From Elusimicrobiota bacterium (GTDB taxonomy: Bacteria; Elusimicrobiota; UBA8919), in assembly GCA_041658185.1 (NCBI GenBank), contig JBBAAR010000001.1, forward strand, positions 122,400-186,399: 64,000 nucleotides of DNA, read 5' to 3'. Shown one piece after another: positions 4,431 to 38,605 of the stretch. A model generated the notes under the pieces. That model did not search any database. It saw nothing but the letters and a program-made list of their open reading frames with translations, and was not told the origin of the DNA. Both the position numbers and the translations under genes were made by a program. Each line of letters begins with the position of its first letter. Within the stretch, counting starts at the first letter, position 1.

Positions 4431-4500
4431 AAACCCGACAGGATTTACAGGATAAAACAGGATAAAAATCAGATATTAAAATCCTGTTAATCCCGTCAAA
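4431..4500 (-). terminator. possible rho-independent terminator after the standalone MBL gene
   Basis: On the minus-strand RNA, acaggau...auccugu stems are followed by a U-rich run (cggguuucuuuuuuauuuuuuu). Confidence 0.3.
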
Positions 4501-4506
4501 AAATTT

Positions 4507-8051: not shown

Positions 8052-9137
8052 TTATTTTCCCAACTTTTTTATCTGATTTTTTGCCTCCGCATCATACTTA
8101 CTGCCTTTTAGTGCTTCCCACTCTTTTACGGCATCATTTTTGTTATCAAGTTTTTCATACATAACTGCCAGTCGGTGTCTCATATCAATTGCCTGCGGGT
8201 TTGTTTTAACACATTTTTTTAAGATTCCCGCTTCTTTTTTCGGCTCGTCTATTTTATTCCAAATATCCGCCAGACGGCTGTAAAGTTTTACTTCCTTCGG
8301 AAAAACCTTTATCCCGTAATTTAAGTTATCAACGGCTCTATCAAGGAGATTGTCTTTCATATACTCTTCGCTGAGAGTCAGGTAATCGGCAGGAATTTTC
8401 TGCCTCAGTTTCAACATAAGATATATCTTTTCCCGCCAGATAGTGTACCAAACATCCACCGTCTCATTATAGGCGTTTATTATAGAATTTCTTGTAAGTT
8501 TTTCAACCTGCTTTATCTGATTGCCGGGATTGTCAATATATGCATCCGCGATATCTGAATAGTGGTCGTATCCGTATTTTGCATCGGCGGAAAACATCGT
8601 CGGAATATCAGAAATATAGTTAGGTTTCCTCGGGACATATTTTATATTAAGGTCCGCCGCATTGTCCTCATACCTTTGATGAAAAGTATCCTCAAACTGT
8701 CTCTGGTCGCAGTGCAGCGGCTGATTCGCATCGGATATGTAATGACTGATTTTCCCCAAATCCAAAAAAAAATTTTCGTCAGTTTTTCTTTCGGGTTTCA
8801 GAAGTTCATCATTTATTTTTAGAGTCATATACAGACATATCTCTGAATTGTGAGGGCGGATTTCCCCTTCGTCGTAGACATCCGGATAGATGCTTCCCTC
8901 TCTCAATTTTGATTCGTTCTGAATAAGAAAATCCCTGAACTTCGTCGGTAAATATCTGTTTCTTGCCGCCTGGGATGCGATTCCTCTGTGAGTATTGTGA
9001 ATCCAGCCGAAAAGGAAGGTTAAAGGTATAAATAAAAGGTATAAATTAAGGCAAGTAAAAGATAGAAAATTAAAACTAAAATTACGGCAAAATATTTTAA
9101 CCTTTAACCTTAAACCTTTAACCTTTATTGTTTTCAT
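8052..9137 (-). CDS. secreted S1/P1-family zinc nuclease-like domain with C-terminal TPR-like region
   Basis: The predicted mature N-terminus is W-IHNTHRGIASQAA (compare the P1 nuclease W1-GxxGH zinc ligand). HYISDANQPLHCD matches the H..D..QPLH motif. The signal peptide LNLYLLFIPLTFLFG is encoded by repeat family B. Start placed at the ATG at 9137, overlapping the upstream stop as ATGA. Confidence 0.5.
   Translation of the reverse strand: MKTIKVKGLRLKVKIFCRNFSFNFLSFTCLNLYLLFIPLTFLFGWIHNTHRGIASQAARNRYLPTKFRDFLIQNESKLREGSIYPDVYDEGEIRPHNSEICLYMTLKINDELLKPERKTDENFFLDLGKISHYISDANQPLHCDQRQFEDTFHQRYEDNAADLNIKYVPRKPNYISDIPTMFSADAKYGYDHYSDIADAYIDNPGNQIKQVEKLTRNSIINAYNETVDVWYTIWREKIYLMLKLRQKIPADYLTLSEEYMKDNLLDRAVDNLNYGIKVFPKEVKLYSRLADIWNKIDEPKKEAGILKKCVKTNPQAIDMRHRLAVMYEKLDNKNDAVKEWEALKGSKYDAEAKNQIKKLGK
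9013..9130. repeat. repeat family B (AAGGTTAAAGGTATAAAT tandem units followed by inverted TTAACCTTT units)
   Basis: aaggttaaaggtataaataaaaggtataaattaaggc ... ttttaacctttaaccttaaacctttaaccttt. Encodes the signal peptide of the S1/P1-like gene. Confidence 0.65.
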
Positions 9138-17670: not shown

Positions 17671-19256
17671 TTTATCTTTCCCGTTAACAAAAATCTTTTT
17701 GTGTAATCGTCAACCGTCTCCAGATTTATGCGGGGATAATCCACATCCTCTGCGACATGAAAATGCCTGTCTTCAAGGGTGTTTCTTCTCATAAAATACT
17801 GGGCTGAAATATCCCAATCAATAATCCAAATCTTAAAACCCGCACCGCCGGAAACAGCCACCGTCTGGGAACCCTTTCTTGAATAATCCGGAAGATACGC
17901 AATCCCGTACCTGAAAATAAAATCCCTTCTTACCTTATGACGGGCGCCGGCCTGCCAGGACAATGTATCTGCCCACCCGAGGTTTGTCCAGACGCCGCCG
18001 GTAGCTTTCACCCGGGCTGCAGACCACTTTGTGTGAATAAAATCAAATGAAAATGTCGGCTCACTGACACCCGGAAATTTGAAGGTCAACCCGTAAGATA
18101 TCGCCGAAGGATATTCGTATTGATATTTGATATTTGTTAAAGTTGCCGCACCTGATATATTGTTTTCCAAGTTTGTTTTTAACTTATCCTCAATCTCTTT
18201 TTCCGGACGATACGAAACGCCTATTTTAGTTCTCGGGGTTACTTCATATGATGCTCCGATAAGATACAGCGAACCGCTTATTGAATGAGTCGTCGTTGTT
18301 GATATGTCCGCGATTATTTGTCCCCTGTTTGAAAGGAGTGTCCCGTAGTCAATCTCCTCAATTTTGCCCTCCGGCTCACCGTATAAATTCCATAATGATA
18401 TGCCTATTGCAAGAGGTTCAACCGGATAATAATTCAACCCTCCGCCGATTGCATAAATCAACCCCCGGGATGTAATTTTATTTGTTTCGGTGCGCTGGGT
18501 TGACGAGTAATTGTTCTCCTCATAAAAATAGTTGAAATCGCTTAGTTCCGTTTCACACACTGCAACCGAAAGTTTGTTTTTTATTACCGGCTGGGAAATC
18601 CCGATACCTGAAAACCGGCCGAAAGAATTCTTGTTCGGCACGGTGGTACCGGCAGAATCATTTCTAACTTTTCTTCCATAAATTGAAAGAAGACCGCCGG
18701 ATAAAACAAACTGTCCGTTGTCAACGGAAATAGTCGCCGGATTTATAAAGACAGATGCCGGCTCATCATTAACAGAAACAGCAGTGCCGCCGGCCGCCGC
18801 AGATGCCGCCGTAAAACCTACCGCATTATCGCCTAACTGTAAAAACGACCCGCGATAGGTGTAGGAGTAAAGAAAGGTTAAAGGTATAAGGTTTAAGGTT
18901 AAAATTAAAATAAGAGCAGAGCGGATTTTTTTGACGGTAGATGTAAAAATACTTATCAGTTCATCTGTTTCTGCAAACAAGTTTTTTACATCTTCTTTTT
19001 GAACTAATCCAGCACCAAGTAATAATCTTAACCAATATCTTGTTTCATTTGCTTCTTTGCGTGAAATGTTTATACTATGAGAAAAATCCTTTCTTGTTAA
19101 TCCGGAATACGCTTCTTCAATATTCGCTCCGACTGATGTACCTGAGCGAAGTATTTGGTCACCCAAAGTTTTGGCTATCTGGTTTTGGGGTAATTTCTGC
19201 ACCAGTTTTATTATTTGTAAAGCGAATTTATAAGTCCGTTCTTTTAAATTCTGCAT
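17664..19256 (-). CDS. in-frame fusion ORF: N-terminal four-helix-bundle protein (23S rRNA IVS protein family) + FadL/PorV-like OM beta-barrel
   Basis: Residues 1-113 (ERTYKFALQII...SGTSVGANIEEAYSG...RKEANETRYWLRLL) match the TIGR02436/PF05635 four-helix-bundle family. The ORF then continues without a stop into a repeat-B-encoded signal peptide (SALILILTLNLIPLTFLYS) and a barrel with NPATI and a C-terminal ...GKIKW. Confidence 0.55.
   Translation of the reverse strand: MQNLKERTYKFALQIIKLVQKLPQNQIAKTLGDQILRSGTSVGANIEEAYSGLTRKDFSHSINISRKEANETRYWLRLLLGAGLVQKEDVKNLFAETDELISIFTSTVKKIRSALILILTLNLIPLTFLYSYTYRGSFLQLGDNAVGFTAASAAAGGTAVSVNDEPASVFINPATISVDNGQFVLSGGLLSIYGRKVRNDSAGTTVPNKNSFGRFSGIGISQPVIKNKLSVAVCETELSDFNYFYEENNYSSTQRTETNKITSRGLIYAIGGGLNYYPVEPLAIGISLWNLYGEPEGKIEEIDYGTLLSNRGQIIADISTTTTHSISGSLYLIGASYEVTPRTKIGVSYRPEKEIEDKLKTNLENNISGAATLTNIKYQYEYPSAISYGLTFKFPGVSEPTFSFDFIHTKWSAARVKATGGVWTNLGWADTLSWQAGARHKVRRDFIFRYGIAYLPDYSRKGSQTVAVSGGAGFKIWIIDWDISAQYFMRRNTLEDRHFHVAEDVDYPRINLETVDDYTKRFLLTGKIKW
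18872..18912. repeat. repeat family B forward arm
   Basis: aaggttaaaggtataaggtttaaggttaaaattaaaataag. Confidence 0.6.
18915..19256 (-). other. four-helix-bundle (IVS-protein family) module nested between the two arms of a family B repeat
   Basis: Occupies exactly the space between the inverted arm (19258-19305) and the forward arm (18872-18912). Confidence 0.6.
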
Positions 19257-19257
19257 A

Positions 19258-19305
19258 TTTTAACCTTTAACCTTTTATTTATACCTTTTATTTATACCTT
19301 TAACC
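19258..19305. repeat. repeat family B inverted arm
   Basis: ttttaacctttaaccttttatttataccttttatttatacctttaacc, followed by a perfect hairpin ccgacgc-taaa-gcgtcgg at 19306-19325. Confidence 0.6.
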
Positions 19306-19324
19306 TCCGACGCTAAAGCGTCGG

Positions 19325-20566
19325 CTACCATTTATATCCTACCGTTGACAAAAGTTTTAACCGGCTTTCAACCACATCGTCAAATCCGGTTAATTGCTGC
19401 GAAATCCTTTCTTGCGTTGATTGCCTCCACGCATATTCTCCCGCCACATCAACAATAGCCCGTCCCACAATAATTCCCAATCCGAATGAAACGGAAGGCA
19501 GCGCTTCCGACGGATTCGGGTAATCCGGCAGATACGAAAAACCGTACCGTAAAGTTGTTTTTTGCGACGGCGAATGTTCTAATCCCAAATGATATTCCCA
19601 TACATTTTTATACAATGGATTTTTTTTGTCTTTCGTTTGTTTTACATTGTTGAGTTTGGTTATCCAGTATCTGGAATCCCCCCAGTTTGAAAAAATCGCA
19701 TCAAAAGTTATTTTTGAATCGTTACTGTCTTTGAAATTATAATTCGCGCCGAAGCCCAGATTATACGGCATTTCAAATATGGAATCGGTGGCGGTAAAAA
19801 CACTGCCGGTACTGTCTTTATCATTTACTTTCAGAGCAAAATTTGAACGATACGCGAGCCCGAAATTAAATTTATCCTCATATATAAAATTACCGCCGAA
19901 AATGAAACTGTCGCCCGTCAGCGTCTGGTAGTCGGATGTCTTCTTAGGCAAAGCACCCGTCTGTAAGTATGTGTAGTCGGTTAGGTTTTCACCTCTTCCC
20001 CAAAGATATGTAAATCCCATAGATACCCAGTCAGCCATCACCCAATTCATACCCAGCGCCCAATTGTGAAACCCGCCCGCTTTTTCAATTATGTCGTTTG
20101 TACCGGCCGAAGTATCCGCTTCCTCAAAATTGTAGTCGGAGTTCAAGTCGGAAAAAAAGCCGAAACCAAAAACAACATCGTTCCTTTTTGACGCAGACCA
20201 TAAAATTGATGCGGAAGGCATTTGAAAATACAGGTTATCCGTTGTTACATAATCGGTGCTCAAATAAGAATGATTCCTTTTGTCAAAAAACAAAACAAGC
20301 CCCGGCGAAACATTTGCAAGACCCTTTTGCCCGGCGTCAAGTTTCATCAGCGAAGGATTGGCGTATAATGATGAGGATTCATTATTAGAGGCAACACCGG
20401 CGCTGCCAAGTGCTAACGAACGGGCCGAAAGTCCGCGTACCGGCTCACCCAGGTTCCAGTAAGAATCAAGGGAAGAATAGCCGGAAAGGAAGGTTAAAGG
20501 TATAAATAAAAGGTATAAATTAAGGCAAATAACTTTAATAATATGATTTTTAATTTTCAATTCCAT
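19325..20566 (-). CDS. FadL/PorV-like outer-membrane beta-barrel protein
   Basis: Signal peptide LNLYLLFIPLTFLSG (from repeat B), GSAGVASNNESSSLYANPS hatch motif, and a C-terminal ...GYKW. Confidence 0.55.
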   Translation of the reverse strand: MELKIKNHIIKVICLNLYLLFIPLTFLSGYSSLDSYWNLGEPVRGLSARSLALGSAGVASNNESSSLYANPSLMKLDAGQKGLANVSPGLVLFFDKRNHSYLSTDYVTTDNLYFQMPSASILWSASKRNDVVFGFGFFSDLNSDYNFEEADTSAGTNDIIEKAGGFHNWALGMNWVMADWVSMGFTYLWGRGENLTDYTYLQTGALPKKTSDYQTLTGDSFIFGGNFIYEDKFNFGLAYRSNFALKVNDKDSTGSVFTATDSIFEMPYNLGFGANYNFKDSNDSKITFDAIFSNWGDSRYWITKLNNVKQTKDKKNPLYKNVWEYHLGLEHSPSQKTTLRYGFSYLPDYPNPSEALPSVSFGLGIIVGRAIVDVAGEYAWRQSTQERISQQLTGFDDVVESRLKLLSTVGYKW

Positions 20567-20600
20567 AATTTTAACCTTAAACCTTATACCTTTAACCTTT
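20489..20600. repeat. repeat family B copy
   Basis: aaggttaaaggtataaataaaaggtataaattaaggc...ttttaaccttaaaccttatacctttaaccttt. Confidence 0.65.
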
Positions 20601-20605
20601 CCCCT

Positions 20606-22681
20606 CTACCATTTATAATCCACCCTTACTTCCCACTTATTGCCGTAGCCCGGGTCAACCGTATTATAATACTCGTCGTTGAAAAACTCATCCGCCGACC
20701 ACTTGTATTTATCTGTGAACCTCATTTTTATCTTAGCGTATCTTGAAAGTTTGTCGGTTACCTGAAGCCAGAACTGACGGGACTCCTTCCCGCTTTTTCT
20801 TAAATCACTATCGGCAAACTTTAACTCGCCTGCAATTTCAAGGTTTCCTGTTATATCATATGTGGTGCGGGTAGTCACTTCATCCTTTGGAAGATATAAA
20901 GTCGGGGTACCGGCATAATCTTCTATGTATTTGTATTTTATAAGCAAATCGCTTACTTTTGAAGGTCTGAATTTCAACTGGAAATTAGTGGTCACCGTCA
21001 TTTTTTCCGAATACTCCACATTTTTGTAGATGTCCTTGTCTTTCCATTTCCTATCGATTTGAATATTCACTCCCCGTGGGAGTTTCCAATTGTATTTCAG
21101 GTAAATCTCCCTGTCAGTAGTGGGCGTTTCATAGATGGTATAATACAGACCGGTGACCGTATCCTTTTGGGTTTTTGCAATGTGGTTGAACTGGTCAACA
21201 TAAAATTTCAGTTTCATCGTCCGTGTTAGTTTTGAGTTAAACTCAATGTAATCGCCTTGCTCGTCGCGGTCACGGAACCTTGTTTTATCGGTATGTTTTG
21301 AATAACCCCGCGCCCACGGGTTGTAAAAATCAATATCGTAATCACGGCGAGAATAAATCATATCAATTTTGCCCATTTTTTTGAATGTTTTTATGTACCA
21401 GGCATTGCCCCAGCCGTGAACCTTTGCCATCTCGCCCGCTATATTAAAACCCTTGTAACCGGTTACGAAATTAGTTCCATAGACGGCAAACGATTGTTCC
21501 GGCGGCCAGCGCCAAATTTGTATGTCCGTATCGGAAAATGTTGCCTCTCTTTTTGAAGTGTAGACCGTGCCGCCGATATAAGTCGCATCAATATTAGGTG
21601 TGGCATCCGCTAATTTATATGTCAAATTACTTCCCACAAGCGTTTCCTCATAGACATCTTCAAGCGTGACATAATGAAGCGCACCGTCATCCATTTTAAC
21701 ATATGTCTTGAACGCATAACCGCCTTTTGAATAAAACTCCGTCAAATCAAACCGGCCCTGCTTCATCCGTGCGCCGAAGCCCTTTAATTGCTGTTGGGTT
21801 GAACCCAGCGTATATTTGTCTTGTAAGACGATATTACCTCCGGACAAACTGTAAATACTTGTCTGCGTCTCTTTTGAATATGTATCGTCGGGATAAAGTC
21901 CCTGGGGCGATGATTTTCCGGACGTATCAAATACAAGCCGCTGTCCGAAGCCCGCCCGGAAATTGCCGAGATACGCCTGCTCTATAACGGGTCCCTTTTC
22001 ATAGCCGATGTATGATTTGTTGAGACGATAACCGTGTTCAAACTCGCCGCCGGTAATGTCCCTTGTGTAATAATAATTGACGTACCTGACGTCGCCTTCT
22101 ATAATTGCCCCGAAATTCATATATCTTCCGAACTTCAATAGCCGCAGGCGGAACAAGTCATATGTCCTCGGATAGTCGGTCGTTGCCATTTCCACTTCCA
22201 AGTTTGATTTGGTCCTGAACACGATATCCCCTTTTGTTTTTATTTTTTCCGGCTGCTCGGCGGCAATAAAAATTTTTATATTTTCGTAAGCCACGTCGTC
22301 TATAATCTCCGGGTTGATTAAATCCTTTATATCTTTGTAATAGCCGTGTTTTAGACGGTAATTTACTATTTTTGAGGCATCCGGAGCGGTTAAACCTGGT
22401 AACGACTGCAGCTGGAAAACATCGGCAGTATTTATGTCAATTTTGTCGTCATAGATAGCTAAAAGATTCTCATATGTTTCATACTCAATATCTCCGTCCT
22501 GATACGCCTGTTCAATATCCGAGTCGCTTTCCCACTGGGAAGTATCGTCGGGATCATCCTCGGCGGAATGGAGAAAGGTTAAAGGTTTAAATAAAAGGTA
22601 TAAATTAAAGGTATAAATTAAAAGAAGGGAAAAAATTTTAAATCTTGGCGCCGTTTTTTTATTGTTATTTTTTTCGTCCAT
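20606..22681 (-). CDS. large OM beta-barrel protein with N-terminal (periplasmic) ComEA-type helix-hairpin-helix DNA-binding domain
   Basis: After the signal peptide, DINTADVFQLQSLPGLTAPDASKIVNYRLKHGYYKDIKDLINPEIIDD is a ComEA HhH repeat (approx. 22276-22440). About 550 beta-rich residues follow, ending ...VRVDYKW. Confidence 0.6.
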   Translation of the reverse strand: MDEKNNNKKTAPRFKIFSLLLIYTFNLYLLFKPLTFLHSAEDDPDDTSQWESDSDIEQAYQDGDIEYETYENLLAIYDDKIDINTADVFQLQSLPGLTAPDASKIVNYRLKHGYYKDIKDLINPEIIDDVAYENIKIFIAAEQPEKIKTKGDIVFRTKSNLEVEMATTDYPRTYDLFRLRLLKFGRYMNFGAIIEGDVRYVNYYYTRDITGGEFEHGYRLNKSYIGYEKGPVIEQAYLGNFRAGFGQRLVFDTSGKSSPQGLYPDDTYSKETQTSIYSLSGGNIVLQDKYTLGSTQQQLKGFGARMKQGRFDLTEFYSKGGYAFKTYVKMDDGALHYVTLEDVYEETLVGSNLTYKLADATPNIDATYIGGTVYTSKREATFSDTDIQIWRWPPEQSFAVYGTNFVTGYKGFNIAGEMAKVHGWGNAWYIKTFKKMGKIDMIYSRRDYDIDFYNPWARGYSKHTDKTRFRDRDEQGDYIEFNSKLTRTMKLKFYVDQFNHIAKTQKDTVTGLYYTIYETPTTDREIYLKYNWKLPRGVNIQIDRKWKDKDIYKNVEYSEKMTVTTNFQLKFRPSKVSDLLIKYKYIEDYAGTPTLYLPKDEVTTRTTYDITGNLEIAGELKFADSDLRKSGKESRQFWLQVTDKLSRYAKIKMRFTDKYKWSADEFFNDEYYNTVDPGYGNKWEVRVDYKW

Positions 22682-22715
22682 ATTTTAACCTTTAATTTAT
22701 ACCTTTAACCTTATT
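22574..22715. repeat. repeat family B copy
   Basis: aaaggttaaaggtttaaataaaaggtataaattaaaggtataaatt...tattttaacctttaatttatacctttaacctt. Confidence 0.65.
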
Positions 22716-24330
22716 TTATCTCTATATTATCCTTTACTTCATCAATTATATCCGCAGATATGCCCGGAACTTTTTTCAAATCATCTACCGCCGGCATCGG
22801 GCCGTTTTTCTTAATATATCTTAAGATATTTTGTGATTGCACAGTCGTAAATCCCAAATCCCGCAGTTGAGACATATCCGCTTTGTTGATGTTTATCTTC
22901 CCTGACGGAATCGATTCCTCCGGCGCCGGTGCCGGTTCAACTTTCGGTTTCGTTGCCGGAGTAGGTAGAACTTTAGGAGCAGGGGGGACAACCTTTGGCA
23001 CAACCGGGGGCGGTGTCACTTCCGACTTCCCGCCCGCCGCAGGTGCTTCCGGCTCTTCCGCATCCGGCTGGGGCTCTTCATTTTCATCTGAAACGGTCGG
23101 TTTAGCAGGAACTGGTTTTTCACTTTCTTCCACTTTTTCTTCACTTTTTTTCACCGGTTCTTCCTTCTGCCTCTCCTCCACCGTTATCAGTCCTTCAATT
23201 TTTGAATAAACCCTTCTTGACATCCTCGGAACATTTAATATATCCTCAATTGAGTTGAATTGCCCTTTTTCACCGCGGTAATCAACAACCCGTTTTGCCA
23301 TCACTTTGCCCATACCCGGAAGTTCCGCTATCTCATCCGAGGATGCAGTATTTATATTGACTTTTCCGGCAGGACGAACCGCTTCCTCCGTCACCTGTCC
23401 CTCGGCCTTCCGCCCGTCTACCCTCTTCCTGGTTGTCCTTGCCGCCTTTTTCGTCTTCGGAGCATATTTAATGGTCGCCTCTTGCTCGCCGCCCCATTTC
23501 ATAGAAAGTGAAACTACATGCATTGCATCAAGCGTGGCGTGGGAAGAATAGCCGTAATCAAAATAAACCGTTTTATAATTTGTTCCGAAACCAAGAGCAT
23601 ATTTTGAAGGATTTGTCTGAAGACCCGTGCGAAACACGAAAAAATCGGTGAGACGGAATTCCGTTCCGATGTGGACGGCGACCGGTTCGTCTATTATTTT
23701 CTCAAAATCCATCGCAAAATTCAATCCCGGAAGAGGTCTGTAAAAAATCCCGGTTAAAAATTCTTCCGTCAGATTTTCATTCCCTTTTGATATCTCCGGC
23801 TCGTTTATGTTTTTGGCGGAAACACCGAGGGCAAAGTCCCCTGAAACCCTTGCCAGAACGCCCAAATCCAGCCCGAATGCGGAATCACTGCCATATTCCT
23901 TGATTTTTATACCCATTGATTTCAAGTTATATCCGAACATTATTCCTTCCGCCAGCCCGAAGCCGTGAGAAAAAATTAAAACGCTTTCTTTGTATTCGGA
24001 GGGACCGAAATCTGAATATAAAAAACCGATGTCGCCGTAGCCCTGAACGGGAAATGCGAATTTTACATTGGTATAACCCAGCCCTTCAACGCCATAAATA
24101 TTCGTATATGTTGAGGCGAACTGGAACGCGGGTATCAGACGCAATCCCGCCGGGTTATAGTCAATAGCGTTGGTGTCGTTGGAAAAACCTACGAAAGCCC
24201 CGCCCATCCCGATAGGTCTTGCCGAGGCGGGTTTTTGCTCAAAAGCAGGGTAGAGCGGAGAGCATAGAGCATAGAGCATAGTAAAAAAGAGCATAGAGCA
24301 TAGAGCGTAGAAAGATTTTTTTGAAAACAT
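22711..24330 (-). CDS. FadL/PorV-like OM beta-barrel fused to two C-terminal ComEA-type HhH domains separated by a Pro/Lys-rich spacer
   Basis: N-terminal PASARPIGMGGAFVGFSNDTNAIDYNPAGL barrel motif. HhH-1 is VNINTASSDEIAELPGMGKVMAKRVVDYRGEKGQFNSIEDILNVP (approx. 23178-23358). A PVK/E-rich linker of about 90 aa follows (approx. 22905-23177). HhH-2 is ININKADMSQLRDLGFTT...LKKVPGISADIIDEV (approx. 22714-22903). Confidence 0.7.
   Translation of the reverse strand: MFSKKSFYALCSMLFFTMLYALCSPLYPAFEQKPASARPIGMGGAFVGFSNDTNAIDYNPAGLRLIPAFQFASTYTNIYGVEGLGYTNVKFAFPVQGYGDIGFLYSDFGPSEYKESVLIFSHGFGLAEGIMFGYNLKSMGIKIKEYGSDSAFGLDLGVLARVSGDFALGVSAKNINEPEISKGNENLTEEFLTGIFYRPLPGLNFAMDFEKIIDEPVAVHIGTEFRLTDFFVFRTGLQTNPSKYALGFGTNYKTVYFDYGYSSHATLDAMHVVSLSMKWGGEQEATIKYAPKTKKAARTTRKRVDGRKAEGQVTEEAVRPAGKVNINTASSDEIAELPGMGKVMAKRVVDYRGEKGQFNSIEDILNVPRMSRRVYSKIEGLITVEERQKEEPVKKSEEKVEESEKPVPAKPTVSDENEEPQPDAEEPEAPAAGGKSEVTPPPVVPKVVPPAPKVLPTPATKPKVEPAPAPEESIPSGKININKADMSQLRDLGFTTVQSQNILRYIKKNGPMPAVDDLKKVPGISADIIDEVKDNIEIK
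24251..24312. repeat. repeat family C forward arm
   Basis: agagcggagagcatagagcatagagcatag...agagcatagagcatagagcgtag; encodes the YALCSMLFFTMLYALCS signal peptide. Confidence 0.65.
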
Positions 24331-24331
24331 T

Positions 24332-24700
24332 TTAATTCTCCTTCAACTTTTTCGTCATTGAATTTATCAGTCCGTTTAACATCTTGGAAATTTCTTCAAG
24401 TTCTTCATATAATTTTCTAAATTCTTGGTGTTCTAAATACTTTTGACCTAATGCTACTTCAAGCAACGGAACACATTCATATGCAGAACCTTTCGCTATT
24501 CTCAAAAACTGGATATATTCTTTTCTGGAATATCTACCATTACCCTCAGCAATATTTGCGGCAATAGAAACAGATGCTCTCCGAAGTTGGTCGGTTAATC
24601 CGAAACATTCTTTTTTAGGAAAATTTGCAGACACTTTATAAATCTCATTTGCAAAGCTCATAGATTTTTTATATACCGTCAAATTTTCAAAATCAAACAT
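24332..24700 (-). CDS. four-helix-bundle protein, 23S rRNA intervening-sequence protein family (TIGR02436-like)
   Basis: FGLTDQLRRASVSIAANIAEGNGRYSRKEYIQFLRIAKGSAYE matches the family signature. Start preferred at the ATG at 24700 (MFDFENL). The stop codon lies 1 nt from the start codon of the following barrel gene. The gene is nested between family C repeat arms. Confidence 0.7.
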   Translation of the reverse strand: MFDFENLTVYKKSMSFANEIYKVSANFPKKECFGLTDQLRRASVSIAANIAEGNGRYSRKEYIQFLRIAKGSAYECVPLLEVALGQKYLEHQEFRKLYEELEEISKMLNGLINSMTKKLKEN

Positions 24701-24702
24701 AT

Positions 24703-24730
24703 CTACGCTCTGTCCTCTACGCTCTCTGCC
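24703..24730. repeat. repeat family C inverted arm
   Basis: ctacgctctgtcctctacgctctctgcc. Confidence 0.55.
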
Positions 24731-24731
24731 C

Positions 24732-27056
24732 TTACATTTTTCTTCCCACCACAATTCTTTTTGAGGATGTTTTTGCGGCGCCGGTTGTTTTATCCAAGGA
24801 CTCAATGTTGACTATGTAGATACCGGTTCTGACTATGTTGCCGTCATCGTCTTTGCCGTCCCAAGTGACGGTAGCGGCTGCGCCGCCGCCGTCGGAATGG
24901 TCAAGAAGTATCCTAACCTGATGCCCGGAAACATCAAAAACCCTCATCGTTATTTGGCTGTTCGCGGGGACAAGATATGCTATTTTTGCCTGACTGTAAG
25001 TTCCGTCTTTATAAGGTGAAAACGGCGACTGGAAGACCTCCATCGTCTTTGTCGTAGTAATCAGCGTTCCGCCGTAATCGCCGTAGCCGGGAGTTGTTGA
25101 ACTTTCCGACCAGTCGGCTTTTGTATCTGTGTCCATCGGTGCGAGTGTGGCTGTGGTAGCAAGACGGTACATTGATTTTGAAGTTGAACCGCTCCACGCA
25201 AAAGAACCGGCGATATATCCTGCCTCATCCGTTGCCTCCGGCGACCACTTGCCCGCCGTAAAAGCGGCATCATATGCCGCCGTAGCTCCGGTATAACTCG
25301 TATCGCTGTTGGCAAAACTCATAAAATCAACAATCGTATCATCGGCATTTTTTAGCGAGATGTTGTTGTCCGTTCCGGTTAAACCCGGGGACGTCTCGTC
25401 CGAGAATAAATCAATATAGCCGCTGGCGTTTTCGTCGGCAGCCGTTTCGTCGCGGGTCTCACCTCTGATACCTGTCGCGCTATTTCCCTTGGATGCCCAT
25501 AGAACTATAAACTTATCTTTTGCGATAGTTCCCATATCGCCGGGGAATGTCTTAATTAAAGTCGTGCCCTCGTATATTTTTACGCTGCTGACATCAGCAG
25601 AGGCGGCAGTAACAAAAATCTCAATAAAATCACCGCCTGAAATTCCGGGCGCAACTTCAGTAATTTTTCCGGTTATAGAACCTGTTCCGCCGGAGGCGGT
25701 AGCGCTGGAAACAAGCCTTCCCAGATTTCTGTCAGCATACCCCAACCAGTCGGATTTTGCATTTGTTGTATCAACCGGAACGCCGTACTCGCTGGTTCTG
25801 CGATTAAGCGTTATTTTGGTGTCCATTAAACCCGCGGTATTGTCCACGGAATTTACCTCGTGTTCCGACACTGAAGTAGCCGCAGGCACCCACTGATTTA
25901 AAACGACCGCCGCATCATACTCTACGTCATAATCAAACTGACCGTCAACTTTGGCAAAAGGGACAAAATCAATCATTGTGCCGGCGGCATTTTTGAGAGT
26001 TAATGTATTCTCGGTAGCGACAATTGTTATGGCGGAAAAAAAGTCCCATTGCCTGTTTCCAAATGCGTTGATGATTGGAACAGCAGCGTTTGTGCCTGAC
26101 TTAAAATGTGCAATTATGTAATCCCCGGAACTTACTGCCACTGACGGAAAAGTGAAAGTCCCTGAATTTGAAACCGCAATCGCGCAACCGCCGATATTTG
26201 CGGTTGATTCAATAACATAAAGTTCCACCGCATCATAGTCACCGCTACTTGACTGGCCCGCATCTATTTCGGTTATAACCGCTTTTATTGAACCGGTACC
26301 GCCGCCGGCGCCGCCGGTATTTACGGCTCCGGGAGAAGTTGACGGTTGAATAGACCAGTCGGATTTTGCCGTTCCGGTATCGTCAGTATCCGTTGAACTT
26401 GAGTCCCTACCAAATGATTTTCCGACAGCGATACTGCCTGAAGCTACACAATCCGCTTGGCCGCTTCCCGTCCATTGAAATTCGGCGACGGCATTATTTA
26501 ACGCTGTGTTGTTGGCGGTTGTCCAAGTCGCATCCTGGTTGGCAAAAGCCATTGCATCTATCGCATCCGGCGTATTGGCGGCATTTCTTAATGTTAAAAC
26601 AGCATCCGTATTAACCAAACTGGGATCTGCCGTATAAAAATCCCAGACATTGTTTGCACCTTTGCCGGAAATGTCATCTTCGCTATTGCTGGTGCCTTTG
26701 ACGCCAAAATGAAGAAGGATATAATCGCCGACACCCGCCGTAGTAAATAAATTAGGAAATGTTTTATTGGCAACGGTTGCCCCCGTACCAGCTACCACCC
26801 AGGTACTTCCCTGAATTATAGCGGAACCTTCCTGCAACACAAGATTTGAATAATTGCCTGCAACGGCGACATAAAACTCTATCCATTCGGCGCCGGCTGC
26901 TTCGGCCGGTGCGACCTCGTTTATCATTATCGGTGATGCGGAAAAAACGAATCCGCAAATGCCGAGAAATAAGGATAAAGTTAAGATAAAAAATCTCTGC
27001 CCGCCAGAGGCGGATTTCGCCCCACAGGGACTTCCGTTGGTCGCTTTTTTCAGCAT
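24732..27056 (-). CDS. secreted surface protein with three lamin-tail-domain (LTD) repeats and T9SS-type C-terminal sorting domain
   Basis: LTD signatures MINEVAPAEAAGAEWIEFYV, ITEIDAGQSSSGDYDAVELYV and ITEVAPGISGGDFIEIFV. C-terminus ...GIYIVNIESLDKTTGAAKTSSKRIVVGRKM is T9SS-CTD-like. Confidence 0.6.
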   Translation of the reverse strand: MLKKATNGSPCGAKSASGGQRFFILTLSLFLGICGFVFSASPIMINEVAPAEAAGAEWIEFYVAVAGNYSNLVLQEGSAIIQGSTWVVAGTGATVANKTFPNLFTTAGVGDYILLHFGVKGTSNSEDDISGKGANNVWDFYTADPSLVNTDAVLTLRNAANTPDAIDAMAFANQDATWTTANNTALNNAVAEFQWTGSGQADCVASGSIAVGKSFGRDSSSTDTDDTGTAKSDWSIQPSTSPGAVNTGGAGGGTGSIKAVITEIDAGQSSSGDYDAVELYVIESTANIGGCAIAVSNSGTFTFPSVAVSSGDYIIAHFKSGTNAAVPIINAFGNRQWDFFSAITIVATENTLTLKNAAGTMIDFVPFAKVDGQFDYDVEYDAAVVLNQWVPAATSVSEHEVNSVDNTAGLMDTKITLNRRTSEYGVPVDTTNAKSDWLGYADRNLGRLVSSATASGGTGSITGKITEVAPGISGGDFIEIFVTAASADVSSVKIYEGTTLIKTFPGDMGTIAKDKFIVLWASKGNSATGIRGETRDETAADENASGYIDLFSDETSPGLTGTDNNISLKNADDTIVDFMSFANSDTSYTGATAAYDAAFTAGKWSPEATDEAGYIAGSFAWSGSTSKSMYRLATTATLAPMDTDTKADWSESSTTPGYGDYGGTLITTTKTMEVFQSPFSPYKDGTYSQAKIAYLVPANSQITMRVFDVSGHQVRILLDHSDGGGAAATVTWDGKDDDGNIVRTGIYIVNIESLDKTTGAAKTSSKRIVVGRKM

Positions 27057-29447: not shown

Positions 29448-29510
29448 TGTTTCTTAACTTCCTTTCACTTTCTTCCACTTTCCTTCACTTCCTTTCACTG
29501 TCCCATCACT
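29345..29510. repeat. repeat family A copy (arms about 60 bp apart)
   Basis: gtgaacaaaagtgaacaaaagtgaacaaaagtgaacaaaaataaatgc ... cctttcactttcttccactttccttcacttcctttcactg. Confidence 0.7.
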
Positions 29511-32500
29511 TAGCCAACACCACTGCGCCGGTGCGCTTTTCGCCGCTTACCGCTTCAACTTTATAAATATAAACGCCGGATTCCAGGACATTGCCGTCGT
29601 CGTCTTTACCGTCCCAGTCAAGATATGCCTGGTTATTTCCGTCAACAGTTCTAATCTTTTTACCGGTAACATCGTAAATTTCAATTTTAACTATATTGCT
29701 GTCGCATATAAAATGAGCTATATCGTTTTTACCGTCAACGGTAGCGGGAGTAACGAATTTCTCGGATGCCGTAGGTTTAACGGGTATTGCACCCTTCGGG
29801 AAAACCGCGAAAAGTGTGAAGTGGTCCACATAGCCGGAAACGGTATTTTTCACGGTATCAACAGTTCCGCCGATATAACGCCACTCCCAGTTATCCCAAT
29901 AGTATATGCGTAAATTCGTCTCCAAAATGCCGGGACGGTCGTCAATTTCACCGTCGCTGTTCTGGTCAAGGTATCTTATCGTTAAAATTATCGGTTTTTT
30001 GAAATGTGTGTTGTCGGGTGTGAAATCAAAGCAAACAATGGGCGCAGTGCTGACCGATGCAATAGTGGAAGTGTTTTCATTTTTGAAAGCCGAGGGGGGA
30101 GGCGTTAAATCACCGGGGTAACCCTCCTGTAAAATCGCTATAGGAACATTTGTTGCAAGCGCACCGGCTGGAATTGTAACGGACGTTTCACCGTCCGTCT
30201 GGTCGCCGTCGGAAACCGTCAGAGTACCTCCGCCGGCTGTCAGTGTTATAACTGCCGTCTGAGTTTTTACATCAACCGTCGGGGCGGTCGCAGCAGTTTT
30301 TGTATCTCCGTTAATAACAATATACCCGTAGTTTGATGCGACATCCTTTGCCTCAATATAGTATTTGAAATCAACCAGAAACGCCGCACCAATAGGACCT
30401 ATTTTGAAAGTGTAAAGGTCGCCGATGTTGGTCGCCGTTGAGACCTCTATCCAACTGCCGCCGGTCAACTGGTAATAAAGTTTTGCGGATGTAACCGGTT
30501 GAATTGAACCGTTATTATCGGTATCAGTAATGGTAGCGACAAAAATCGCATAGCCGCCTAAAACATTAATTTCTGTTACCAGCGTGTGCGTAACGGTCGG
30601 CGGAACGGTATCGGGATTGGCAACTTTTTCGTTTGAATAAATTGACTCAACACCGTCGGTATCGCGAGTTGTGAGCACATAGTAATATGCTTTCTGAGTG
30701 CGGGGTGAAACAATCGGGTCGGTATAACTCGTTCCCGTAGAAGTTGAACCGGCAAGCGTGTAAGGGCCGCCGGAAACGATTGAATAATAAATTCTGTATG
30801 ACGAGAAATTGCTTGCCGTAAAGTCCGGCGAATGCGTCCAGACAAGATTGATATTACTTCCCGCATAATTCGCCGAAACAAGAACCGGCGGCGCAATAAA
30901 CGGTGCGGTTGAGACGGCAGAGGAATACCCGCTTTCAAGTGCGATTGAATAAAGTCCGTTCAACTGGTCCCCTTTATCAACCGCTACTATTCTGAAATAA
31001 TATGTCACGCCGTTTGTTAAACTTGTTATGTGAAGCGGATTAGAAGAACTGTATAGTGCGGGATAATTTGTTGTAGAACATAACACAACATTACCGTCAA
31101 ATTTTGTAGCAAAAGTGAATGTCGCTCTGTAGACCCAGTATTTTTCTATATCATCATTGCCGGGTTTAAGTGTTGAATTTGTCCACCAGATATTAACGGC
31201 GGTATTTGATGAAACAACAGTCACTGCGGTCGGTTCATTCGGTGCCACATCATATGCGGCGGCATAAGAAAGCGTATTTACAAAAGTTCCCGTTGACCAA
31301 CCCGCCCAGTTGCTGGCAACTTCATCCCTGTATTTCAGCGCAAAATAATATGATGTTCCGGGGTTAAGCCCTGTTACAATAGTAGAATACGGCTCCCGGG
31401 TTACAGTATTTGTTGACACATCAGGACGTATTGTTGCATTACTAAAATCCGTGTCATTTCCTATCGGATTTGTAGAGTACGCCACCCGGTATTCGCCGCC
31501 GGAAACGTTGCCGACTGTTCCGTCGTCGCCGGGAGCCGTCCATCTCAAGTTGACCTCGCCGTCATTTGTTCCGGTTAAAGCAGTCAAGTCGGAAATGTTA
31601 TTCGGCGGTACGGTCTGGACATATGCATATGCGGAGGTGTTTTGTGTAAAAGGTGCATCGGCGGTTGACTTCCACACAGACCAGTTTGTAGAAATTTCAT
31701 CCCGCGCCTTTATCGCAAAATGATAGAGCACATTGTTTCCTAAAAGCCCTGTTACTACTCTTGAACAAGCCGTTAAAGGCAATAGCGAAGAAGTTGATAT
31801 CACGATAGTATTTGCAGCAGACACTGAGCCATAATTTGAATTGCTTATAATATCTGTTGATGAATATTTTATTTCAAATGCCGCATTGTTAAGCGTCCCC
31901 ACAGTTCCGTCATCGCCGGGCGATGTCCACTGCAAAATTATCTGCCCGTCATCGCTCCCGGTTAAAGCGGTCAAATCGGAAATATTATCGGGCGTAACGT
32001 TCACAACGGTTGCATATGCGGAAGTGTTGACGGTTAAATCATTTGCTGATGAAGTCCACACGGACCAGTTTGTAGAAATTTCATCCCTCGTCTTTATCGC
32101 AAAATAATACAGAACGTTGTTACCTAATAAATTATATATGGTAGTTGTACAGGCAGTTAATGGCTGAAGTGAGGTCGTTGTAATCGTAACGGTATAACTC
32201 GGTGCCGGCGGAGAATCGTAATTGGAACTATTTATAATACCTGTTGAAGAGTATTTTATCTCAAAAACGCCGGTAAGATTGCCGACCGTCCCGTCATCGC
32301 CGGGCGATGTCCACTGCAAAATTATCTGCCCGTCATCGCTCCCGGTTAAAGCGGTTAAATCAGAAATCCCGGCAGGCGGAAGGGTATCAGGCGGTTGTTC
32401 CGGCGCCGAAGAAGAGTTTTTGGCAAATCTATAAGTTGAATGAAAAGTGTAATCTGCGTCGTTATTATCAGAATCATAGCCGCATCCGTTTGGCGAATTG

Positions 32501-35500
32501 GGTTTTCTTTCGTAGGATTTTCCGGATGCAAGCCCGCCGGATGAAACCAGGGTTCCTTCAATAGAGTTAACATTCCCGGCATTTTGGGCTATACCGTCAA
32601 TTTTTACACTGGCGGCATCAGTTATCATAACACCGTTTGACACCCCTATACTGGCAGAATATGTTGCATCGGGCGTGGCATTGCCCGCTGGCAGAATGCC
32701 TGCAACAAACAAGAAATACCCATATGCCGGAATAGTTGAGTTTGCCCCCCATGCTATCGTTTTACTTGACAGTACCCCTAAACTGGTTTCAGTTCTCAAT
32801 TTCAATATCCCGCCGGCACTGGGAAGGTTCTTCAAATCAATGTCATTGTTTGTGGGATTGTACAATTCAACAAACTCATTGCCGGCGGCATCCGTACCCG
32901 CGGTTATCTGGCTTATCACTATGTGGTTCGCCCAGGTATTTGATGCCTGAGGCATCGTCATGGTACTTACCGGAGACGCATATGCCGTTTCTATCCGGTC
33001 GCCGTTGTACGCCCACACACTGAAATAGTAAGTTGTGTTAGCGGATAAATAATAGACAATAGTTGTTGTTGCAGTAAGTCCTGACGCAAAATTGACAGCG
33101 GTTGTGGACACATAAAAATCGGTGGCAGTTGCATATTTGACGCCGTATTTTGTCGCCGGGGACGGATTATCATTGGCGTTCCAAGTGAGATTTATAGAAG
33201 TTGAGTTATTTGTCGTCGCTGAAGGACTTGCCGGAGGTGCAGCGGCGGTATATGAAGTTATAGACACAGACCACACACTGCCGTTGGCGTTATTTGCTTC
33301 GGCAAATCTTGTATATTGCGTGTTAGTTGAAAGCCCGACCTCTGCCCAGTAGGTCGTGCCTGTAAATGCGGCATCTGCAAGATTCCCTGAAAGATGCATC
33401 GCAGTATCCGACCCGCTGGACAAATAAAGCCCCGTCTCATTAGTTGAATTATCGTCAAACTGCCAGTAGATTGCGGTTGTACCTCCGAGTAAAGAAGATA
33501 TTTTCAAATTAGAAGGCGCCGTCGGAGGTCCCACTTTCGTTGTTGTGCTTGACTGTATGTATGCCGTCATCGTGGAAACTTCGTTGTATGCCCACACGCG
33601 GAAATAATATGTTGTCTCGGCGGAAAGTCCGAATGCGGTAGTCGTGTTGCCGGTAAAATTATCCGCAAACACTATGAATGTGCTTATGGCAGGCCCGTCA
33701 AATGTATCGGTGGTTGATTTGGCAACGCTGTATCTTGTCCAACTCGGATTGTCGTTGACATTCCACTGAAATGTTGCGCTTGAATAACCCACGCAAGTAT
33801 TTGTAGGGAATACCAAGTTTGTGGGCGGTCGGGCAAGAGTGTATGCGGTCGCTGCATTTGATAACTGGCTTTCGCCTGTAGAATTTGTCGCAACGACAAC
33901 CCTGCAATATGATGAGTTTGCAGATAAAATGTCTTCAATCCAAAATGCGCTGACCGACGGTAAAATTGACGAAACGGCAACGCCGTAAGGCGAAGTTGCA
34001 TACCTCACCCGATAGCCTACTCCCCCGCCGGCATCCGTCCAACTCCACTTTATTGAGTATGTTGACTGTGCAATTCCCGTAAATCCGGTCGGTGCAGAAG
34101 GCGGCGCCAGCCACGGTATCGTGCTTACCTCAACCACCGAAAAACTTTCTTTCGGAACGCTGTAAAGCCCTTGCCCCTGGTCGCCTTTATCAAAAAGTGA
34201 AATGTGATAATAATATGTTGTAAGATTTGTAAGCCCGATATCAACAAACGAGGTAGTCGGATAACCAAGCAGATAAGTGAATGTTGCGGCAACATGAACA
34301 TAACCGCTATCATTTCTTTCCGGCTCGGTAAATGAGGCACTGGACCGATAAACCCAGAATTTGTCGTAATCGTTGACGCCGGCTGGCACCGCGGGATATG
34401 TCCATGTAAGCGAAATGAATGTGTCCCCTCCGACGGCGGTTGATGTAACAACGGCATTCGGTAATAAATCCTGCGCGGCGGAGGTAGAGGCGGTATTTGT
34501 GTAAGTCCCGGTTGACCAACTCGCCCAGTTGTTTGATTCATCTCTATATTTCAATGCGAAATAATATGATGTTCCGGGATTAAGTCCGGTAACCGTTAAC
34601 GAATACGGTTGACTGGGCACGGTCTCGGTCGGTTTCACAATTCTGTAATTTGCCGGTATATTTGAGAAATTGGTTTCGTTTCCGATGGCATTTGTTGAAT
34701 ACCTCAAATCATACTGCCCGCCGGAAATGTTACTTGTCATACCGTCGTCGCCGGGCGCCGTCCAACTCAAAATTACATCCCCGTCGTTTATGCCGGTTAA
34801 ACCCGTCAAATCCGAAATCGCCGCCGGCGGAGTGGTATCTACAGCAGAAGTAAGATTCCCAATAGCCATATCAAACGACTGTCTTGTGGAAAGCGAGTTG
34901 GTTTCTACTGTGGTTACAGCACCCCACGAAGCGCCGCCCCACTTCTGCCATCTGACGGAACTATCGGCACCGTTTGCTATTAGATATATGTCGTCGCTTG
35001 TTGCAGAAACCTCTCTTACAAGACGATACCACTGCCCCTGCGCACCGGCTCCAAAGTCGGTAGCCTGTGCAACGTTGGAAAAAGTCAATCCTCCGGATGC
35101 TCTCGTTGCATATGAAGGCGGTGTAAAAGTGGAAGACGAAAATGCGATAAGACAATCTCCGCTCTGTCTTTCGTAATTTATATCAAATCTTTGTTGAGAA
35201 GAACCTGTTGTATTCCCGGAAATAAAGGCACCGTTTCCCCATGTTGTGCCATCCCAAATTGCAACAGCAAGTTGCGGTGTAGTACTGCCGGGTTTGAAAT
35301 AGTTAAACGCAAGTTGTATTTCGTTAGCGTTTGGTTTTGTGACAAGCCGTACCCACTGTGACCTTGTTGAGTAAGTAACGCTATACCCTACACTCATAGG
35401 AGATGCCGCCCAATCGCCCGCGGCGGTCCACGTTGAATAACTCAAAGAAGTCGCGTTGTTCGTATCAACCCAAACAGCCATCGCTTTTCCGGAATTTTCC

Positions 35501-36378: not shown

Positions 36379-36464
36379 TGCGGGTTTCTTAAAACGACAA
36401 TTTATATTTTTGTGCTTTTTTACTTTTTCCGTTTTTCACTTTACCGTCGGTAGAACAAAACCTA

Positions 36465-38505: not shown

Positions 38506-38605
38506 GTAAAACAAAACCTATTCAACTACTTTCGTCCCTAAAGGGATTTCCTTCGGTCACAACTACGAAACTACGGAAGTAGTTGAGTGCTTATTAAAAA
38601 AATTA
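38506..38605. repeat. REP-like palindromic element (GTAGTTGAAT family, with CCCTAAAGGGA and CTTCGGTC submotifs)
   Basis: aacctattcaactactttcgtccctaaagggatttccttcggtcacaactacgaaactacggaagtagttgagtgc. Confidence 0.65.

Follow-up and report, generated by a model that had tools for sequence, protein, structure and literature searches.

Introduction

In Coxiella burnetii, the intervening sequence (IVS) within 23S rRNA contains an open reading frame (ORF) for S23p, a protein of the PF05635 family, and tandem GACAGAT heptamers, two or three of them depending on the strain, precede this ORF; the 28-bp terminal inverted-repeat stem of the IVS is cleaved by RNase III, and the authors of that study refer to earlier suggestions of a mobile-element origin, with IVSs as remnants (PMC4990558). 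PF05635/TIGR02436 is a large, multi-copy bacterial family with a function known in diversity-generating retroelements (DGRs) only, and it has been a puzzle since ORF-bearing 23S rRNA IVSs were found. Here we describe two genes of this family, designated 4HB#1 and 4HB#2 (4HB, four-helix bundle), in a 64,000-nt stretch of DNA from an Elusimicrobiota bacterium (assembly GCA_041658185.1, contig JBBAAR010000001.1, positions 122,400 to 186,399), which is called the window below and whose numbering is used throughout. Each gene lies between inverted arrays of short tandem repeats inside an operon of protein-coding genes, an arrangement to which an earlier note on this DNA had drawn attention. Loci outside the window are given L-numbers and their proteins P-numbers.

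RAYT proteins, the partners of REPIN hairpins, are homologs of HUH Y1 transposases. The Correia/NEMIS miniature inverted-repeat transposable elements of Neisseria are inverted-repeat hairpins co-transcribed with their neighbours, and NEMIS hairpins are RNase III substrates. Eukaryotic foldback elements possess terminal inverted repeats made of short tandem units and sometimes a central ORF. Dispersed intergenic heptamer arrays, frequently arranged as convergent inverted pairs, have been reported in Xanthomonas (GGGAATC, 70-75 such pairs), in Nostoc (GGGGAYT and short tandemly repeated repetitive sequences, STRRs) and in Beggiatoaceae (TAACTGA), with no function assigned, and neither of the two papers mentions PF05635, S23 or IVS proteins (PMC4692102, PMC4679880). 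Apart from the Coxiella IVS paper, no paper on a general association between 4HB genes and such arrays was found in the searchable literature, subscription-only articles excluded.

Two PF05635 genes are enclosed by inverted tandem arrays

The first ~50 kb of the window have all their genes on the minus strand, and no more than two window ORFs belong to PF05635. 4HB#1 (18924..19256, minus strand) comprises 111 codons without a stop codon. It forms the N-terminal part of ORF 17664..19256, which scored 82.7 bits with PF05635 (residues 6-103) and 97.3 bits with TIGR02436 (curated cut-offs of 33.8 and 24 bits, respectively), the domain occupying residues 5-111. This domain was complete in the alignment, with the C-terminal end ...TSTVKKI, and was 93% identical to the stand-alone protein P0017. 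4HB#2 (24332..24700, minus strand) encodes 122 amino acids, ends with a TAA stop codon and scored 140.9 and 135.8 bits with the same two models. It matched the PDB sequences 2GSC (E 6e-17) and, as a family relative, 2RLD (E 1e-8), and an identical protein was present on 4 contigs. The identity between the two 4HB proteins was 27%. An alignment of 10 4HB sequences contained the invariant columns P, Q, R, S, N, I, E and E (core motif Q..R...S...NI.EG ... E), and both window ORFs were assigned to the family on scores over the cut-offs, this core motif and a solved four-helix-bundle relative. As judged from the alignment, the polar positions (Q, R, S, N, E, E) are invariant between phyla, which implies a putative conserved molecular function. 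A single-sequence AlphaFold2 model gave four helices at low confidence (predicted local distance difference test score 64), and the fold was for this reason taken from the PDB sequence match. The crystal structures 2GSC and 2RLD contain 5 chains each.

The sequences on either side of these ORFs, referred to as arms, were arrays of short units. In cassette 1, the 5' arm (19257..19310, minus strand) is a purine-rich array of GGTTAAA / GGTATAAATAAAA units, called family B (Tandem Repeats Finder array 19259-19306), and it directly adjoins the ATG of 4HB#1 ('ggttaaaatATG'). The 3' arm (18868..18915, minus strand) is a pyrimidine-rich family-B array (Tandem Repeats Finder array 18873-18903), which reads in frame as LILILTLNLIPLTFL, the core of the signal peptide of the downstream barrel. 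The units found at the two arrays were of 7 and 13 nt. In cassette 2, the 5' arm (24701..24732, minus strand) consists of AGAGCGT / AGAGGAC units of family C (direct repeat D4, 24702-24729; inverted pairs I1 and I3) and fills the spacer between the stop codon of a 774-aa gene and the ATG of 4HB#2, which it also adjoins directly ('gcgtagatATG'). The 3' arm of this cassette (24248..24315, minus strand) corresponds to 8.6 copies of TAGAGCA on the plus strand (Tandem Repeats Finder array 24251-24311, 7-nt unit) and encodes YALCSMLFFTMLYALCSPLY. Read in gene orientation, the purine-rich arrays are '...ggttaaaggtataaataaaaggtataaataaaaggttaaaggttaaaatATG' (19310..19257) and 'gggcagagagcgtagaggacagagcgtagatATG' (24732..24701). 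The profile scores and the detected arrays agree with the two nested genes described in the earlier note, which had also located the elements in mRNA leaders. This location did not hold: the 3' arms are coding sequence for the hydrophobic core of each barrel signal peptide (LILTLNLIPLTFL; YALCSMLFFTMLYALCS). The strand is a second correction, the genes concerned being all on the minus strand.

The arms were complementary at both sites. At site 1 the inverted pair extended over 43 nt at 77%, with perfect cores of 15 nt and 13 nt, and at site 2 two inverted pairs were found, of 45 nt at 73% and 17 nt at 88%. Compared with dinucleotide shuffles, the duplex between the flanks gave a z-score of -3.1 at site 1 (2/150 shuffles as good) and of -4.9 at site 2 (0/150). 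When the whole regions (446 nt and 491 nt) were folded as RNA, the arms paired with each other across the ORF in the minimum free energy and in the centroid structures, with z-scores of -4.56 and -3.15, and 0/100 shuffles were as good. The junctions with the downstream genes were also as the note had given them. 4HB#1 reads in frame into a barrel to form a 530-aa ORF (17664..19256), and the stop codon of 4HB#2 is separated by 1 nt from the ATG of a 539-aa barrel protein (TAAaATG).

The array-ORF-inverted array arrangement recurs in many phyla

Two samples of other loci were analyzed. Set 1 consisted of 80 metagenome loci (L009-L088) with 4HB#2-like genes of 46-54% identity, and set 2 of 80 loci (L089-L168) from GTDB species genomes, found with the 10-sequence 4HB alignment and belonging to Acidobacteriota, Bacteroidota, Cyanobacteria, Planctomycetota, Verrucomicrobiota, Chloroflexota, Proteobacteria, Campylobacterota, the candidate phyla radiation, Gemmatimonadota and Bacillota. 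In set 2, short-period arrays represented 27.0% of the bases located at most 120 nt from the ORF versus 2.4% elsewhere in the same loci, and they flanked the ORF on both sides in 51/80 loci, on one side in 23/80 and on neither in 6/80. Inverted flanks, called when the upstream flank aligned to the reverse complement of the downstream flank with a score of at least 30, were recovered in 44/80 loci (median 34 nt) versus 0/80 in a mismatched-locus control. Neither of the two outcomes that the earlier note had named as refuting, arms lacking complementarity and 4HB genes of relatives lacking an association with such repeats, was thus observed. Units of 7 nt predominated (75 arrays), followed by those of 8 nt (26) and 9 nt (9). 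When the units of the two sides were compared, they were reverse-complement rotations of each other, allowing at most 1 mismatch, in 29 of 41 loci (4% in the control). Examples are ATTGGGG x 9 / CCCAATC, AGGAGTTAA / TAACTCCTA, GCGGGCAT / ATGCCCGC and GAACAAT x 10 / TTCATTG x 29. The median gap was 14 nt from the stop codon to the downstream array and 33 nt from the end of the upstream array to the ATG. Same-strand neighbours were found upstream in 68/77 and downstream in 62/77 loci, with median gaps of 84 and 46 nt. Of the 40 set 2 loci sampled for an rRNA location and the 11 outlier loci in set 1, not one had it. Because of these arrays, inverted flanks and co-directional neighbours, we regard the architecture of the window sites as the common one for the PF05635 family, and these observations suggest that 'array - ORF - inverted array' is a common packaging of PF05635 genes across many phyla, outside rRNA.

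The order of the arms was also shared, the 5' arm being purine-rich in 36/59 set 2 loci and pyrimidine-rich in 1/59. This purine-first polarity is the same whichever DNA strand is read, and it may merely provide a Shine-Dalgarno-like sequence before the loop ORF together with charged-then-hydrophobic coding for a signal peptide.

In set 1, arrays made up 11.0% of the bases at most 120 nt from the ORF versus 1.8% elsewhere in the same loci. They mostly formed a complete hairpin upstream of the ATG, with purine heptamers followed by complementary pyrimidine heptamers. The test of upstream against downstream flank was weak in this set (median z +0.26; z < -3 in 6/75 loci) because the whole hairpin stands upstream of the ORF in the 4HB#2-like subfamily. 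A same-strand tRNA gene (Pro, Gln, Glu, Arg, Asp or Ala, mostly Pro) or tmRNA gene ended 115-260 nt upstream in 47/80 loci, with the heptamer hairpin filling the spacer between the tRNA or tmRNA gene and the 4HB gene, for example in L011 (2455-3357), L017, L037 and L061. When set 1 4HB proteins at least 70% identical to each other stood behind different types of tRNA, the spacer hairpin was common to 92-98% of the pairs, and for this reason we conclude that hairpin and ORF disperse as one module.

Some individual loci of these samples deserve mention. In L096 (2651-3381), from a Dehalococcoidia metagenome-assembled genome, a 4HB cassette with GCGGGCAT / ATGCCCGC arrays immediately follows a T-box leader, separating this riboswitch-like leader from its gene. 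In L009 (2499-5798), and also in L078, L085 and L013, a 4HB ORF with inverted AGGGAYG / CRTCCCT arrays is found inside a 1099-aa ORF for a DUF1156 DNA-methyltransferase; in L009 the host frame stays open through the insert of ~450 nt, and further heptamer arrays are read in frame (VVPHPSPLNPHPSP). Many heptamer arrays of L089-L168 have a higher-order period of 21 nt, corresponding to three units; examples of this period are L013 3378-3455, L100 2814-2881, L112 2841-2917 and L131 3369-3442.

Orthologous operons are empty or differently filled

A genome scan with the 691-aa protein encoded between the two sites yielded no relative, and synteny was recovered via protein searches. At the position of site 1, L005 and L008, whose barrels are 87% and 74% identical to that of the window, are without 4HB; there the barrel gene and the one before it overlap by 7 nt, with the two arms inside coding sequence. 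L006 (barrel 79%) possesses a 4HB gene at this position, the product of which is 33% identical to 4HB#1. This gene is located between two copies of the 5' hairpin of the host gene, corresponding to a direct duplication of ~75 nt of the host 5' end. The orthologs at site 2, P0009 (70%) and P0010 (68%), have no 4HB upstream. L172 retains the gene order of an LTD protein followed after an 8-nt gap by a PorV-like gene, free of insert, and L169/170 are insert-free too. Because orthologous operons are either empty (L005, L008, L169/170, L172) or filled differently (L006), we regard the inserts as presence/absence/replacement polymorphisms.

The closest relative of 4HB#1, P0017, has a normal stop codon and precedes an unrelated 457-aa tetratricopeptide repeat (TPR) protein in L173, where it is flanked by the same family-B arrays. 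The DNA alignment of L173 with the window revealed homology which starts at the purine-rich arm, continues through the ORF and ends after the pyrimidine-rich arm, with two segments that are extra in L173. The segment 59 nt before the ATG represents the pyrimidine arm belonging to an upstream hairpin, and the one 70 nt after the ORF comprises the stop codon and a purine arm together with the ATG and n-region of the host gene. Two layouts can thus be distinguished, [R-Y]-ORF-[R-ATG-Y] in L173 and L006 and [R]-ORF-[Y] in the window, where R denotes the purine-rich and Y the pyrimidine-rich arm, and by comparison with L173 the fusion at site 1 corresponds to the loss of the stop codon, an R arm and the host ATG. 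The description of the genes as nested exactly in the loop of a hairpin holds for the window sites but not for L173 and L006, in which a complete hairpin stands both before and after the ORF. More distant relatives were found in other operons. P0018 (69%), with family-B-related arms, is encoded between motA and motB by an ORF that continues through the Y arm (...KKCRASLIIILTLNFLLLTCS*). P0019 (67%) is encoded between nuoK and nuoL (L180, L181) with 19-nt inverted arms of different sequence. The ORF keeps its arms at different host genes, where the cassettes are in sense orientation within operons and fill the intergenic spacer. The suggestion that the 4HB gene travels with its hairpin as a mobile module is supported by P0017, which carries the same arm family at another host gene, and by the empty or refilled orthologous sites.

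The 530-aa fused product was called on two assemblies, and the contig itself was recovered from several assemblies. The orthologs of the first barrel (74-87% identity) are proteins of 418-443 aa, all of them unfused. Because PF05635-TPR fusions and the read-through of P0018 occur in other loci, we consider the fusion a recurrent state and not an assembly artefact. The PF05635-TPR fusions, of 370-388 aa, were observed in Elusimicrobia at L174 6030-7196, L175 6083-7194, L176 4034-5200 and L178 4771-5937. The motA/motB 4HB gene of L174 (4001-4390) ends with LIIILTLNFLLLTCS via read-through of the pyrimidine arm, and the same loci hold a PF05635-TPR fusion paralog. In L173, a PF13366 (PDDEXK_3) gene (4434-4835) is located 3 kb from the 4HB#1-like cassette, with repeated CACAGA / TTCAGTG motifs downstream; we take PF13366 to be the GxxExxY family, which has presumably been reported in rRNA IVSs too.

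ORF-less hairpins of the same repeat families

Besides the two cassettes, inverted paired arrays were seen at roughly 19 of ~27 gene starts between 0.8 and 43 kb of the window, as read by eye with no scripted count, and seven empty hairpins folded with z-scores of -3.4 to -5.6. This matches the claim that most gene junctions carry repeat units, a loop and inverted repeat units. The units fall into families A (AAGTGAACA-like), B (GGTTAAA / GGTATAAATAAAA), C (AGAGCRT / AGAGGAC), D (AGAGAATT) and E (AATTAAG). Families B and C occur both as dispersed ORF-less copies and as inverted flanks of a protein gene. The empty family-B hairpin at 20485..20605 (minus strand, z -4.62) encloses the ATG and n-region of a 413-aa barrel gene, and its arms are the inverted counterparts of those of cassette 1. 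Inverted matches without any mismatch link the 3' arm of cassette 1 to the 5' arm at 20566-20601 (36 nt), and its 5' arm to two 3' arms of empty elements, at 9017-9046 and 20491-20520 (30 nt). We therefore describe cassette 1 as a family-B element of the empty type that is turned round and has a 4HB gene in the loop, its arms having been copied at the DNA level. Two other family-B hairpins of the minus strand are located at the start of the 691-aa gene (22570..22712, z -3.51; inverted pairs I6 and I8) and inside the 5' end of ORF 8052..9155 (9015..9135, z -3.76). A family-C hairpin (16215..16320, minus strand, z -3.97), with units in common with the arms of cassette 2, is wholly within the signal-peptide coding region of gene 14441..16333. 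No remnant of a 4HB ORF was seen by eye in the empty family-B loops, which hold the host ATG and n-region codons.

In genes for secreted proteins, the purine-rich arm is in the leader or encodes a Lys/Arg/Glu-rich n-region, and the pyrimidine-rich arm encodes a Phe/Leu/Ser/Thr-rich h-region. Signal peptides built from two hairpin arms were observed over window positions 1300-37600, for example at 14315-14450, 16215-16320, 17550-17662, 20485-20605 and 37480-37575. The repeat families of the signal-peptide region are entirely different between orthologs whose mature proteins share 74-87% identity.

A 107-aa ORF which is not a 4HB is bounded by another wide inverted pair, the third one (12877-12948 / 13298-13360), and this pair represents two complete family-D hairpins, one per junction. 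This ORF (12957..13280) encodes a conserved membrane protein and stands between the complete AGAGAATT hairpins (12877-13361), the outer and inner arms of which are 88-91% complementary across 349-420 nt.

A cassette model and its alternatives

We consider it reasonably probable that both sites are mobile, sense-oriented IVS-type cassettes, made of an ORF and foldback arms and inserted in host operons. Such elements are built like ORF-bearing IVSs and would, by analogy, also work like them. A cassette of this type would lack a promoter of its own and be transcribed with the host operon, the 4HB being translated from the start position otherwise used by the host gene. The downstream barrel would be expressed via translational coupling (TAAaATG), or as a fusion in which the internal hydrophobic arm may still act as signal sequence. 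In the transcript, the arms would close the ORF into a loop of ~340-370 nt with a long, register-tolerant stem, a geometry like that of the 23S rRNA IVSs cut by RNase III. Spread between sites may take place at the DNA level, either when arrays of one family undergo recombination, gene conversion or template switching with each other or through a trans-acting enzyme. The [R]-ORF-[Y] layout of the window could be derived from [R-Y]-ORF-[R-ATG-Y] by loss of one arm from each flanking hairpin, site 1 having presumably also lost the stop codon and the host ATG.

An extended proposal, which we put forward tentatively, is that PF05635 genes are the protein-coding core of a ubiquitous class of foldback elements comprising 23S rRNA IVSs, tRNA/tmRNA trailers and operon cassettes. 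The inverted heptamer arrays, such as cyanobacterial STRRs, Xanthomonas GGGAATC pairs and ORF-less IVS hairpins, might then be derivatives devoid of ORF, with each paralog recognising and maintaining its own family of units in a RAYT/REPIN-like manner, and the arms might have been exapted here as n- and h-regions of signal peptides.

Several observations weigh against reading the sites as mobile IVS-type cassettes. At site 1 the arms match each other over 15-18 perfect nt only, which is worse than their match to the arms of other elements. Mismatches between arms were without G:U-compatible excess (36 versus 46 of A:C type, in addition to 121 transversions). Considering the perfect inverted matches of 30-36 nt and this absence of G:U bias, the arms look like DNA-level inverted copies, and because the mismatch spectrum has no RNA-wobble bias we do not claim selection on an RNA stem. 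Arms were present on both sides of the ORF in 9/76 set 1 loci only. No transposase, integrase or reverse transcriptase gene was found beside either cassette, and no target-site duplication could be defined, window site 2 having an ATGTTT microhomology only and the available empty/filled pairs all being with hairpins. The hairpins could predate the cassettes, because the 3' arms serve the host as signal-peptide coding sequence and most hairpins of the window are without ORF. Finally, the S23p of Coxiella appears not to be expressed (PMC4990558).

The last point also bears on a cognate-partner model of the RAYT/REPIN or TRAP (trp RNA-binding attenuation protein) type, in which an oligomeric 4HB protein would bind the units of its own arm family in trans. 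The gene would stand inside its own binding array, allowing autoregulation, and the ORF-less hairpins would be regulated or propagated sites. Each 4HB gene is indeed flanked by an array family that is also dispersed at other junctions, the flank sequence tracks 4HB protein identity even at different host sites, and in 7/47 cases the unit of the flank is found again at another place of the 6-kb locus, versus 0 for control units. The invariant polar residues and the five chains of the solved structures are consistent with this model, and the 4HB homolog bAvd binds nucleic acids (PMC10053308). Against it, no 4HB gene accompanies array families A, D and E in the 64-kb window, and covariation of protein and arms is equally expected from joint descent as one cassette. 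We find this model rather unlikely; it is compatible with the cassette model and does not exclude it. Far less credit can be given to a simple coincidence of position, in which the hairpins would be host elements at most starts of secreted-protein genes and any small selfish ORF upstream would look nested. The abundance of ORF-less hairpins at gene starts, the signal peptides encoded by the 3' arms and the 107-aa ORF between arrays of the same family are in line with it. However, the association was found in two independent samples in which background arrays are rare (2.4% and 1.8%), the arms accompany the 4HB ORF to unrelated host genes, and the 107-aa ORF stands between two hairpins that are each complete, instead of inside a split one. 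The set 2 arrays, inverted flanks, tRNA modules and L173 alignment largely refute this coincidence, which appears hardly credible.

CTCTT repeats are known to switch the opa genes of Neisseria. Slippage-prone arrays in signal-peptide regions might likewise switch outer-membrane genes on and off as contingency loci, the 4HB gene being incidental. The presence of units of 7, 8, 10 and 13 nt, which are not multiples of 3, inside the 5' coding ends of outer-membrane genes would fit such a role, as would the signal-peptide regions that are wholly different between 74-87% identical orthologs and the strain-variable heptamer number in Coxiella (PMC4990558). The one strain comparison made does not go in this direction, the arrays at site 2 being identical in a second strain (L003) that is 96.4% identical over 1.9 kb, and thus 3.6% divergent, nearby. 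Moreover, the units within arrays are imperfect, and contingency leaves the inverted symmetry and the link with 4HB genes in intergenic spacers of other phyla unexplained, so that we judge it very unlikely. The IVS-type cassette remains our preferred reading of both sites.

Comparison with described elements

The window cassettes resemble the 23S rRNA IVSs of Leptospira and Coxiella by the PF05635 ORF, by tandem repeat units (heptamers in the Coxiella IVS) immediately before this ORF, by the enclosing inverted-repeat stem, which is a terminal stem in the window folds as well, and by being sense passengers of a host transcript. They differ in that they are located in a protein-coding operon, that the 3' arm doubles as code for a signal peptide, and that one ORF is fused to its host gene. 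RNase III excision is demonstrated for the 23S rRNA IVS and would apply to the window cassettes by analogy. As in REPIN/RAYT systems, a gene is flanked inversely by a repeat family that is dispersed as ORF-less hairpins, and different paralogs go with different families. In contrast, the window 4HBs carry PF05635, and a weaker bAvd match, only, with no recognisable catalytic, transposase or recombinase domain, and their arms are tandem arrays of 7-13-nt units instead of a fixed palindrome. The arrays analyzed here also differ from the dispersed heptamer arrays by being tied to a specific ORF. At the Nostoc loci L106, L112 and L146, STRR-like units were seen by eye beside 4HB genes. With the Avd protein of DGRs the 4HBs share a homologous four-helix-bundle fold (bAvd Pfam model, E 1.2e-8), whereas no reverse transcriptase, template repeat or variable repeat is near the window genes. 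Correia/NEMIS and foldback elements offer an analogy only, with no sequence or protein relationship to the window cassettes.

Two direct assignments were tried and rejected. With the Avd model NF033474 the score was 37.2 bits for a cut-off of 80, and no reverse transcriptase domain was found in the called genes within ~6 kb on either side. For a 23S rRNA IVS proper, no Rfam family reached its gathering score in the 64-kb window, and both flanks of the cassettes are protein-coding.

Taken together, these results suggest that the rRNA IVS is a special case of a general inverted array - ORF - inverted array cassette, whose habitats would include operons, tRNA/tmRNA trailers, mRNA leaders and coding sequences and whose ORF and arms would move jointly. 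The PF05635 family thereby gains a testable genomic behaviour and a link to the puzzle of dispersed heptamer repeats. For annotation, such cassettes account for unexpected small ORFs and for N-terminal PF05635 fusions before membrane or secreted proteins.

Downstream barrel genes and other repeats of the window

The barrel fused behind 4HB#1 (17664..18923, minus strand) is a FadL/BamG-like outer-membrane beta-barrel, which passed the PF03349 Toluene_X model (33.5 bits for a cut-off of 29.7). The gene following 4HB#2 (22711..24330, minus strand) encodes a 539-aa protein that combines a PorV-like barrel with a ComEA helix-hairpin-helix domain (HHH_3, 106.6 bits; PorV_fam, 56.4 bits, below the cut-off). 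The naming of both barrels as PorV/FadL-like is approximate: the first one passed Toluene_X, but the PorV and BamG models stayed under their NCBIfam cut-offs.

A distinct family of intergenic repeats, 'tcaactacttccgtagtt...gacgaaagtagttga' accompanied by 'gaccgaaggaaatccctttaggg' hairpins, was observed at several junctions between positions 36400 and 43200 of the window and looks more REP-like than array-like. Sites of the 'tcaactacttccgtagtt...gacgaaagtagttga' family are found upstream of genes 29506..36378, 37579..38496, 38603..39532 and 39982..41430.

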